From Raillietiella orientalis (lineage: Eukaryota), in the NCBI GenBank assembly GCA_036172245.1, contig JAYWIR010000064.1:1-64000 (forward strand): a stretch of 64,000 bases of DNA, written 5' to 3'. Position numbers and translations under genes: made by a program. The first letter of the stretch is position 1, and every line of letters starts with the position of its first letter. Shown one piece after another: positions 41,220-45,899 of the stretch. The notes beneath the pieces were generated by a model, which saw only the letters and a program-made list of their open reading frames with translations, ran no database searches and was not told the origin of the DNA.

Positions 41220-44200
41220 ATGTACCTATATAATTTAACACTGCAACGTGCAACAGGAATAACTCATGCAGTTCATGGAAATTTTTCGGGTACAAAATTG
41301 CAAGAAGTTGTGGTTTCAAGAGGAAAATTATTAGAGCTGTTGAGGCCAGATCCAAACACTGGAAAAGTACACACTGTTCTTTCAACAGAAGTATTCGGAA
41401 TTATCAGGTCTTTACTTGTCTTTCGCCTAACAGGCGGTACAAAAGGTATCGTATTTATAAAATATTTTTATACATGTGAAGCAATGTGTTCTTTAGATTA
41501 CATTGTAGTTGGATCTGATTCTGGTAGAATAGTAATTTTGGAGTATAATGCATCAAAAAATGAATTTGAAAAAATTCATCAAGAGACATTTGGGAAAAGT
41601 GGATGTCGGAGGATTGTTCCTGGTCAATATTTAGCATTTGACCCTAAAGGTCGGGCAGTTATGATAGGTATGAGTGATTAAAAAGTGGGATGTTTATTGA
41701 CTTCAGGTTTTTTTCCACAGGTGCAGTAGAAAAACAAAAACTGGTTTACATTCTAAATCGTGATGCACAGGCTAGATTGACTATTTCATCACCTTTAGAA
41801 GCACACAAGAGTAGTACTCTTGTTTACCATATGGTTGGTGTGGATGTAGGATTTGAAAATCCCATGTTTGCATGTTTGGAAATTGATTATGAGGTTTGTT
41901 TAACCTGGTGTGTTTGTGCCTAATTTTTCGCAATTAGGATGCTGATCAGGATCCTACAGGAGAAATAGCTCAAAAAACTCAGCAGACTTTGACTTTTTAT
42001 GAACTTGACTTAGGTCTCAATCATGTTGTACGCAAGTATAGTGAGCCACTTGAGGAGCATGCCAATTTCCTGATATCTGTTCCTGGTGGTTCTGATGGTC
42101 CTAGTGGAGTTCTCATTTGTTCGGAGAATTACATTACTTATAAAAACTTAGGCGATCAACATGATATTCGATGCCCTATTCCAAGAAGACGAGTAAGTCA
42201 CTTGGTTATTTGCACCTGGATCACACATTTGCAGAATTTCTGCATTTGATCTATGGTTCTATAAAATTGCAAAGCTATCGTTGAAAGGCAGGCACTAATG
42301 CTCCCTTTCTGGTTTTGTTTGCAACATTTATGTAATTTAGTAGATGAATGGTAATACAACTGGTTTTTTGTAGAATGATTTGGATGACCCAGAGCGGGGT
42401 ATGATTTTTGTTTGCTCTGCTACTCACAAGACGAAATCAATGTTTTTTTTTCTGGCACAGACAGAGCAAGGAGATATTTTCAAAATAACTTTAGAAACAG
42501 ATGAAGACATGGTCACAGAAATAAAATTAAAATATTTTGATACTGTGCCTGTGGCTGTTGCCATCTGTGTTTTGAAGACAGGATTTCTGTTTGTTGCATC
42601 AGAATTTGGCAACCAGTAAGCACATTTATGCATGATATTAATTATTTCTGTAGTTATCTGTATCAGATTGCTCATCTGGGAGATGATGATGATGAGCCTG
42701 AATTCAGTTCAGCTATGCCATTGGAAGAAGGGGATACGTTTTTTTTCGCCCCTCGACAATTGAAAAATTTAGTGATGGTAGACGAGATGGAATCATTATC
42801 TCCAATTATGCATTGTCAGATTGCTGATCTAGGTAAGTTCTGTGTGTTTTCAGTTTAAGAAAAAATTTTGTTCTGTCCCCAGCTAATGAAGACACTCCTC
42901 AGCTCTATGTAGCCTGTGGTAGAGGGTCTCGATCTTCCCTCAGGGTTTTGCGTCATGGTTTGGAGGTGAGCGAAATGGCGGTTTCTGAGCTGCCAGGTAA
43001 TCCTAATGCAGTATGGACAGTGAAGAAACGGTCTGATGGTCAGTTGGTCGATGTTCATTTGCCTGTGATGGCTGACTTCAGGTGACTTCTGCTGCAAACA
43101 TCAGATGAATATGATGCGTATATCATAGTTTCATTTGTAAATGCTACCCTGGTGTTATCTATTGGTGAAACTGTAGAGGAAGTAACGGATTCAGGTTTTC
43201 TGGGAACCACTCCAACGTTATCTTGTTCTCAGTTGGGAGATGAGGCTTTGGTGCAGGTGGGTGTACAAGAAGTTCTGTAGTTGATTGGGTCTTACTATGA
43301 TGTTTTCCGTGTTTCAGCTGATTTTTGAGATGTATTCATTTGCTACTGAGTGATGTTTGCTTGAGACTGCAATGAATTTCTTTTCAGTGTAATTGCTTTA
43401 TTTTTTGTTTTTGCTTTTCTGTAGGTCTATCCTGATGGAATTCGCCACATTAGAGCAGATAAACGAGTCAATGAATGGAAAGCCCCTGGGAAGAAGATGA
43501 TTCTCAAGTGTGCCATTAATCAACGTCAAGTAGTTATTGCTTTGAGTGGTGGTGTTTTAGTTTACTTTGAAATGGATATGGTAAGATCTGCTCAGATAAT
43601 TCCATTGACATTGTTTATAGACTGGGCAACTTAATGAGTACACAGAACGTAAAGAGATGTCAACAGATGTAATTTGCATGGCACTTGCTAATGTACCAGT
43701 AGGAGAACAACGCTCTCGATTTCTAGCTGTAGGTCTAGAAGATAATACAGTCCGAATTATTTCTCTGAATCCTACTGTAAGTTCATTTGATGCTTTTCTC
43801 CATAATCCACATCACTTTTAGGATTGCTTGGCTCCTCTCAGTATGCAGGCTTTGCCAGCTCCTCCAGAATCATTATGCATTGCTGATATGGGAGGTTCTG
43901 AAGGAAGGGAAGGAGAACCTGGAACTCCAGGCACATTGTATTTGTATATTGGTTTGCAGAATGGTGTGCTTCTTCGCACTGTATTAGACCAAGTGAGTTA
44001 AGCAAAGAAAGTTTGTTGAGGGATGCTTGTGATGCTTTTAGATAACTGGTGATTTGTCTGATACCCGCACACGTTATTTGGGATCAAGAGGTGTCAAACT
44101 GTTCAAAGTACATATGCAGGGCAGTGAAGCAGTAAGTTAGTTTTGTGAACTATGAAACCGAAAAAAATGTGCGAACATCTGAGCATATTTGTTTTTTAGG

Positions 44201-45899
44201 TATTGGCAATGTCAAGCCGCTCTTGGCTTAGCTATTATTATCAAAATCGTTTTCATTTGACTCCACTTTCCTATGATACTTTGGAATACGCCAGTGGGTT
44301 TGCATCTGAACAGTGCCCTGAGGGCATTGTAGCTATATCTACAAATACTCTTCGTATTTTGGCTCTGGAAAAACTAGGTGCCATTTTCAATCAAGTGTCT
44401 TATCCACTGGAATACACACCACGGAAATTCATCATCCATCCAGAATCTGGCCATCTTGTCATGATTGAAACTGATCATAATGCATATACTGAAGAGACCA
44501 AACAGCAGCGTAAACTTCAGATGGCAGAGGAAATGAAGGAAGCTGCAGGCGAGGATGAGATGGAGTTGGCGCAAGAAATGGCAGAGGCCTTTTTGAATGA
44601 ATCTTTGCCTGAAACTGTGTTTGGGGCTCCAAAAGCTGGTCCTGGAATGTGGGCTTCTCTTATACGCATTCTGAATCCCATCGATGGTCGCACACTTAAG
44701 TTAGTGCGTTTGGAACAGAATGAAGCAGCTCTCAGGTAACATTAGGCAACAGTGGATGCATGGTGTTCTTTTAGCTTATGCTTTGTGAAGTTTGCCAACC
44801 AGAGGCACGATGACACTCATCTCATCATTGGAGTAGCTCGTGACTATCAGCTGAATCCTAGACAAGTTCCAGGAGGTTTTCTTTATACGTTCCGGTATGT
44901 ATGTTTTCAAAGATGGTGAAGTACACTAGTTAATTTAGGGTAAACTACGAGTGTTCTGATATGGAGTTAGTGCATAAGACACCTACGGATGAGATTCCTA
45001 TTGCCATGGCTCCGTTTGCTGGGCGTGTTTTGGTTGGAGTTGGTCGTATGCTGAGAATTTATGAGAAAGGGAAGCGCAAATTGTTGAGGAAGTGTGAGAA
45101 CAAACATGTACCTAACATGGTAGTGAGCATTCATACCATGGGTCATCGTGCATATGTGGCTGATGTACAAGAAAGTATTCTGTTTGTTCGATATCGCCGT
45201 CCTGAGAATCAGCTTAATGTCTTTGCTGATGATACATATCCTCGATTTGTCACTTGTTGTTGTCTTTTAGACTATGACACTTTGGCAATTGCTGACAAGT
45301 TTGGCAATATCTCTGTGGTAAGACTTTCTTCTGGTAGCTGGAAGTTTTTGAAAATACTCTCTGCAGATTCGGTTGCCATCAGGAGTTAATGATGATGTAG
45401 AAGAAGATCCTACAGGCACCAAATCTTTATGGGATCGTGGTTTATTAAGTGGTGCATCTCAGAAAGCTGATACTCTTACTAATTTTTATGTTGGAGAAAC
45501 TGTGTTATCCCTTCAAAAGGCCACATTAATTCCTGGTGGTAGTGAGTCCCTTGTGTACACAACCTTGAGTGGTACCATCGGAATTTTGGTTCCTTTCACT
45601 TCACACGAGGATCACGACTTTTTTCAACATTTGGAAATGCATATGCGAGCAGAGCATCCTCCACTTTGTGGGCGAGAACATGTAGCTTTTCGATCAAATT
45701 ACTTTCCTGTTAAGGTATGTATCTGTTTGTTATGGTCACAATTTGAGAGTGTTCTTAGAATGTCATCGATGGTGACCTTTGTGAACAGTATAATTCCATA
45801 GATTCAGCTAAACAAAAAAGTATTGCAGAAGATTTGGATAGAACTCCAAATGAAGTATCCAAAAAACTTGAAGATATACGAACACGCTATGCATTCTAG
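41220..45899 (+). CDS. SF3B3: Splicing factor 3B subunit 3 (SAP130), 17 coding exons
   Basis: Starts [26 protein letters not shown] and ends [13 protein letters not shown]. Near-continuous similarity to SF3B3 ([61 protein letters not shown]). There are 16 GT-AG introns: 14 of 38-68 nt and two long ones (42193-42373, 43257-43424). Confidence 0.98.
42210..42329 (+). ncRNA. Intronic box H/ACA snoRNA candidate (predicted 18S rRNA pseudouridylation guide)
   Basis: Hairpin 1 (acctggatca/tgatctatggt; upper stem tgcaga/tctgca), H box ATAAAA at 42261-42266, hairpin 2 (ttgcaaa/tttgcaa; upper stem gaaagg/cctttc), and ACA at 42324-42326 followed by ttt. Pocket-to-ACA distance is 14 nt. Pocket strands tatcgtt and tggtt are complementary to the conserved 18S sequence ACCA-UA-AACGAUG. 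Confidence 0.8.
43292..43353 (+). ncRNA. Intronic box C/D snoRNA candidate (predicted 28S rRNA 2'-O-methylation guide)
   Basis: Box C ATGATGT at 43297-43303, D' CTGA at 43318-43321, D CTGA at 43346-43349, terminal stem ttac/gtga. The guide tccgtgtttcag upstream of D' is complementary to the conserved 28S sequence UUGAAACACGGA. Box D lies 75 nt upstream of the 3' splice site. Confidence 0.75.

Follow-up and report, generated by a model that had tools for sequence, protein, structure and literature searches.

Locus and anatomy of the element

The DNA considered here is a stretch of 64,000 nucleotides (nt) from Raillietiella orientalis, positions 1 to 64,000 of the forward strand of contig JAYWIR010000064.1 (assembly GCA_036172245.1), and is called the window throughout. 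On its + strand, from about 41220 to 45899, lies a gene whose pieces carry RSE1/DDB1/CPSF1 propeller and CPSF_A domains. One exon piece compared with human chains matched SF3B3 at an E-value of 1e-53 and DDB1 at only 1e-6, which identifies the host gene as SF3B3. Within one of its introns, 43292..43353 on the + strand, the window sequence has the layout of a 62-nt box C/D small nucleolar RNA (snoRNA) gene. We show here that its guide is identical to that of vertebrate SNORD126, and we consider the element very probably to be a compact intron-encoded box C/D snoRNA, the counterpart of Drosophila snoRNA:CD43 and a functional equivalent of SNORD126.

A previous annotation made from the letters of the window alone (the sequence-only reading) had placed such an element in intron 8 of SF3B3, with C, D' and D boxes, a terminal stem, an antisense element of 11-12 nt directed at 28S ribosomal RNA (rRNA) and a typical distance to the 3' splice site. 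All of this is borne out. The gene follows from the match to human SF3B3 and the intron number from the exon count, and all of the boxes are present, together with a C'-like box that had not been listed (Table 1). The C box departs from its consensus at one position, the last, and is matched by a CTGA D box and a terminal stem of 4 base pairs (bp), namely U-A, U-G, A-U and C-G. The antisense element exceeds 10 nt, adjoins the D' box and places its fifth position on a mapped site of 2'-O-methylation (Nm); its 12 nt form 11 Watson-Crick pairs and one G-U pair. The C'-like box begins 5 nt past D' and ends 12 nt ahead of D.

Table 1. Parts of the element and its host intron, in window coordinates
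Feature	Position	Strand	Remark
SF3B3 intron 8, host intron, 168 nt	43257..43424	+	GT 43257-58, AG 43423-24
5' terminal-stem half TTAC	43292-43295	+	pairs with GTGA 43350-43353
C box ATGATGT	43297-43303	+	consensus RUGAUGA, final letter U instead
D' antisense element TCCGTGTTTCAG	43306-43317	+	aimed at large-subunit (LSU) rRNA UUGAAACACGGA
D' box CTGA	43318-43321	+	read from the sequence
Loop TTTTT	43322-43326	+	read from the sequence
Degenerate C'-like box GAGATGT	43327-43333	+	shares GATGT with the element's own C box
Spacer ATTCATTTGCTA, 12 nt, 5' of box D	43334-43345	+	doubtful second guide
D box CTGA	43346-43349	+	read from the sequence
3' terminal-stem half GTGA	43350-43353	+	pairs with TTAC

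Removal of the host intron joins ...EALVQ to VYPDGIRH... with the reading frame kept. The match of a spliced messenger RNA (mRNA) contig of a relative (less than 90% alike) stops at 43423, with loose exon-like letters upstream, which agrees with this 3' boundary of the intron. The 3' splice site lies 75 nt beyond the end of the D box and 71 nt beyond that of the stem, distances within the customary range for intronic C/D snoRNAs. The SF3B3 gene is otherwise very compact. A heuristic gene model, which takes the options that retain all homologous coding sequence and is not based on aligning a reference protein, gives 17 exons. Of the 16 introns, 14 measure about 38-68 nt, and the only two long ones are intron 4 (181 nt) and intron 8 (168 nt). 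Thus, intron length alone flags the two introns that we read as bearing snoRNAs, and the fact that intron 8 has kept a length some 100 nt above that of 14 of the 15 other introns, in a gene whose introns are minimal, argues for selection. At this locus an Rfam search with E-values up to 5 gave, beyond snoRNA matches, only a CRISPR-DR4 look-alike inside an exon, which at 22 bits lies below threshold and was dismissed as a chance match.

The guide and its predicted target adenosine

Ribosomal DNA (rDNA) loci were retrieved by means of the LR3R LSU primer motif, and five of them (L126, L133, L145, L153 and L162) were annotated with Rfam. In all five eukaryotic rDNA loci tested the D' guide pairs with TTGAAACACGGA. 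Counting upstream from the D' box, the fifth nucleotide is T 43313, and its partner is the second A of GAAAC. When aligned with the Rfam consensus of SNORD126 (RF01168), guide and D' box (UCCGUGUUUCAGCUGAU) are identical at 17 of 17 positions, and therefore the register, the distance to D' and the target are those of SNORD126. The two RNAs differ in length, SNORD126 measuring about 77 nt in the model and the element 62 nt.

SNORD126 is a guide for human 28S Am1323, formerly Am1310 (PMC9941101). Table S4 of PMC11014333 aligns this human site with fly 28S Am796 (formerly 771, FBgn0086067), with Xenopus position 960 (assigned to '126', in two different copies) and with Dictyostelium Am841 (CD12), and it gives the equivalent positions of yeast and Arabidopsis as unmodified. 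The fly residue appears in the Drosophila methylation map between its neighbours (Gm789, Am796, Am799 and Cm813; Table 1 of PMC11014333), with MethScores of about 0.97-0.98 in four control samples. On the basis of the shared register, the adenosine selected by the guide corresponds to human 28S Am1323 and Drosophila 28S Am796. This methylation target is already known and guides for it have been described, namely human SNORD126, the two Xenopus '126' copies, Dictyostelium CD12 and Drosophila CD43; the element therefore defines neither a new target nor a new modification site.

The sequence-only reading had named the same adenosine, three nt upstream of the classical U18 site, and had argued that the element is not simply U18. 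The register shared with SNORD126 and the separation of the two sites in Table S4 (fly 796 and 799, human 1323 and 1326) uphold both statements. The element does resemble U18/SNORD18 and yeast snR18 in pairing with the same conserved stretch of an LSU helix (…GAAACACGG…). However, the U18 target lies three nt downstream, at fly 799, which Table S4 of PMC11014333 equates with human 1326/1313 (SNORD18A-C) and yeast A649 (snR18), and an identity with U18/SNORD18 was rejected because the register disallows it.

The rDNA itself calls for a comment. Eukaryotic LSU rDNA is present in at least 48 contigs (L120-L167) that are catalogued as parts of bacterial or archaeal genome assemblies, and the five that were annotated all carry eukaryotic small-subunit (SSU), 5.8S and LSU rRNA, L126 with group I introns in addition. 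These contigs are presumably contaminants of the assemblies in question. Scanning viral contigs with the LSU primer motif gave no match.

The probable Drosophila counterpart

In the supplement of PMC11014333, FBgn0086067 is snoRNA:CD43, or Me28S-A771 (Huang et al. 2005), an RNA of 73 nt (3L:830438-830511) with the C box AUGAUGC, whose host gene is the fly Sf3b3 and for which expression in heads, ovaries and S2R+ cells is recorded. The element would thus address the adenosine equivalent to fly A796 from an SF3B3 intron, and because target and host gene are both those of CD43, it is most likely the counterpart of this fly RNA. Like CD43, it is compact and has a C box that is non-canonical at the last letter. 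The fly RNA is, in contrast, 11 nt longer, and its snoscan scores in the same supplement (27.13 for Am796, 12.35 for Am799) include a weak prediction for the U18-type site as well. The guide strings do not occur in the supplement of PMC11014333, and a full-text literature search for 'Me28S-A771' found nothing.

The same supplement places further C/D snoRNAs, CD26a, CD26b, CD32b and CD34, in fly Sf3b3. The SnoBIRD study counts six C/D and three H/ACA snoRNAs in this gene and describes SF3B3 as a recurrent snoRNA host across animals (PMC12309372). In contrast to the fly gene, SF3B3 of the window appears to hold only one of each class. Vertebrate SNORD126 itself lies in CCNB1IP1; it was originally an orphan and was reported to be restricted to rat thymus and spleen (PMC1636440).

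Chance occurrence in the window

Box C/D snoRNAs are recognised by short motifs, and an AT-rich intron might bring such motifs together by accident. Either feature taken singly would allow this. A scan of both strands of the whole window for the architecture (TGATG, a CTGA 35-120 nt later and a flanking stem of at least 4 bp) gave 14 candidates against 9.7 +/- 3.0 in 30 first-order Markov simulations, which is chance level. Complementarity to rRNA was counted as Watson-Crick pairs anchored at most 2 nt from the box, at 566 CTGA sites; stretches of at least 11 nt were found at six of the 566 with the rRNA of L153 and at four with that of L145, the candidate included. The two features combined, however, occur in the window at this element only, and none of the architecture candidates is among the 14 further CTGA sites that were inspected, at which 10-12 nt are complementary to rRNA. 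The 16 letters of guide and D' box are met once in the window where 0.02 occurrences are expected (up to two mismatches allowed), and 2 of 100 shuffles matched. A more flexible guide scoring with wobble pairs and mismatches was dropped as non-discriminating, because 41 of the 566 sites reached the score of the true D' guide.

The predicted fold is likewise unstable (minimum free energy z-score +1.16), as a random stretch might be. However, box C/D RNAs are not expected to form stable folds, so that this value is unremarkable and uninformative for the class. In addition, an accidental constellation would have to point by luck at a conserved methylation site that has been mapped (Table S4, PMC11014333), sit in the gene that also hosts the fly guide for this site (PMC11014333 supplement), and have, in another SF3B3 gene, a homologue whose stem is compensated (contig L053, below). 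Taken together, we regard a chance origin as scarcely credible.

The stretch before box D

The sequence-only reading had also suggested, tentatively, that the stretch before box D acts as a second guide near the U24/U76 cluster of 28S. Such a double guide, acting there or on another RNA, would be in keeping with the spacer of exactly 12 nt before box D and with 8 contiguous bp to LSU TAGCAAAT that begin right beside the box. A match of this length is nevertheless commonplace, since anchored stretches of at least 8 nt occur at 160 of the 566 CTGA sites with the rRNA of L153 and at 90 with that of L145; when wobble pairs and one mismatch are allowed, 193 of the 566 sites score equally well, and the best flexible partners vary across the five rDNA sets. 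The stretch differs in every homologue described below, and the adenosine that it would select, after UAGC, is absent from the fly Nm sites in Table 1 of PMC11014333. Thus, this suggestion does not hold up: a second guide is very unlikely, the double-guide role is unsupported, and the stretch before box D probably does not act as a guide.

Homologues in metagenome contigs

Exact copies of the 16-mer of guide and D' box occur at no fewer than 119 loci in the metagenome contigs scanned. Of the 119 listed, 14 are preceded by TGATG at a distance of at most 25 nt, where our own arithmetic predicts about 2.4, and 10 of these also have a CTGA (D box) downstream. Six of the 10 (L030, L038, L053, L074, L104 and L115) carry stems of 5-11 bp right at the boxes. 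In an alignment of eight homologues with the window, only guide and D' box are invariant and the stretch before box D differs from group to group. The stems, in contrast, are kept by compensation, with TTAC/GTGA, GCGA/TCGC, GACTGC/GCAGTC, TTTGGA/TCCAGA and GCGCGC/GCGCGC at corresponding places. The C' position reads TGATT, TGATG or TGCTGA in the homologues, and the C box ATGATGT of the window recurs in L053, L030 and L074. A covariance model was not built from these homologues, because picking them by their guide 16-mer would have made such a test circular.

One of these homologues, in L053, lies in an SF3B3 intron. With the SF3B3 pieces of the window as tblastn queries, L053 was the sole match among the 119 listed loci (85% over 73 amino acids, E-value 9e-40). 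Its snoRNA of 68 nt (L053:717-784, - strand; flanking exon L053:412-630) has the same ATGATGT C box as the window element and is identical to it over 18 nt of guide and box; the terminal stem is TTAC/GTGA in the window and GCGA/TCGC in L053, and the remainder has diverged. The exon that starts VLAMSSRSW follows the L053 snoRNA after about 90 nt, and the corresponding exon of the window is preceded by intron 12, an empty intron of 68 nt. The elements of L053, L030, L074 and L104 all have the same 16-nt guide and D' box, a C/D layout of 68-83 nt and a compensated stem. For L030, L074 and L104, no SF3B3 exon was seen at a distance of up to 1.2 kb.

Some further features of these contigs were noted. 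The SF3B3 gene of L053 has an extra intron after ...FNQ that is missing from the window gene. A longer variant of this guide family in L001 (1184-1264), L003 and L005 has a conserved second guide ahead of box D, …AGTCTTCTTTCCCTGT, followed by CTGA, which we take to pair with GGGAAAGAAGAC of LSU rRNA; over the part that was compared, L061 repeats L001. The loci L003 and L005 are situated within a CFAP96-like gene, and L038 lies beside an RPL28-like exon whose 28.5 bits are under the Pfam cut-off.

Evidence against a functional snoRNA, and its probable biogenesis

Several observations weigh against a functional counterpart of CD43 and SNORD126 at this locus. At gathering scores, an Rfam scan of the window had no match. 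When 351 nt were searched by E-value, six of the seven matches were to families of box C/D RNAs and fell on the element, on its + strand, all of them sub-threshold (sR9 21 bits, SNORD51 19.7 bits, SNORD126 15.9 bits); the last score, with an E-value of 1.9 on 351 nt, stands against a gathering score of 55, and the element is therefore not a sequence member of RF01168. The D' pairing was computed on the rDNA of other eukaryotes. The orthology with CD43 is supported by target and host gene, not by a sequence alignment. In L053 the snoRNA occupies a different SF3B3 intron, equivalent to intron 12 of the window and not to intron 8, so that simple positional orthology fails. Finally, the C box ends in U, the C' box is degenerate, the 4-bp stem includes a G-U pair, and RNA coverage at the locus is confined to 43423-43549, where the relative's mRNA from one sequencing run spans the downstream exon and leaves the intron uncovered.

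The weak boxes, the short stem and the uncovered intron are also what a decaying or silent snoRNA pseudogene would show, one that no longer forms a stable ribonucleoprotein while another locus guides the methylation, and SnoBIRD predicted snoRNA pseudogenes in macaque SF3B3 introns (PMC12309372). However, guide, D' box and D box are intact here, and the guide is exactly the SNORD126 consensus. A C box AUGAUGU occurs in several expressed fly snoRNAs (PMC11014333 supplement). The retained length of intron 8 argues for selection, and the distance to the 3' splice site suits processing. We therefore consider a pseudogene unlikely, and a functional box C/D snoRNA remains by far the better account of the element.

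As a functional snoRNA, the element would be co-transcribed with SF3B3, and an RNA of about 62 nt would be released from intron 8 by splicing, followed by exonucleolytic trimming down to the terminal stem. It would then be bound by the core proteins of the class, namely Nop56, Nop58, Snu13 and the methyltransferase fibrillarin. The D' guide TCCGTGTTTCAG is predicted to pair with the universally conserved LSU stretch UUGAAACACGGA, so that the second A of GAAAC, opposite the fifth position from D', is presented for 2'-O-methylation.

An H/ACA candidate in intron 4

Intron 4 (42193-42373, 181 nt), the only long intron besides intron 8, has a textbook H/ACA fold on the + strand. The RNA would extend over about 42212-42329, in the order hairpin, H-box-like AUAAAA, hairpin and ACA (42324-42326), with 3 nt after the ACA. 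Its minimum free energy is -34 kcal/mol (z-score -2.71), and weak, sub-threshold Rfam matches to the H/ACA families ceN100 (15.1 bits) and TtnuHACA22 (15.9 bits) end at the ACA. Intron 4 thus probably holds a second snoRNA, of the H/ACA class. The pocket of its second hairpin could form 6 + 7 bp around a U in the SSU sequence AAACCA-UA-AACGAUG of L145, which makes the U of CCAUAAACGAUG in 18S rRNA a candidate target for pseudouridylation.

Implications

The analysis yields one well-supported snoRNA annotation, and probably a second in the H/ACA candidate of intron 4, in a window where an Rfam scan at gathering scores returns nothing. This shows that short arthropod-type snoRNAs overlooked by covariance models can be found by combining the identity of the guide with the context of the host gene. 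SF3B3 is recurrently used as a snoRNA host, and the element contributes a further instance. Neither a new modification site nor a new mechanism is involved, and the element is a real but ordinary snoRNA.

What is mildly new is only the persistent tie to SF3B3 together with an altered intron position. It is possible, and we put this forward tentatively, that the tie between the Am1310/Am796 guide and SF3B3 is old and common to this animal, Drosophila and the organism behind L053, and that the snoRNA has moved within the gene between intron 8 and the equivalent of intron 12. If this is true, SF3B3 would offer a tractable case of a snoRNA moving inside a single gene while its tie to the host is kept.

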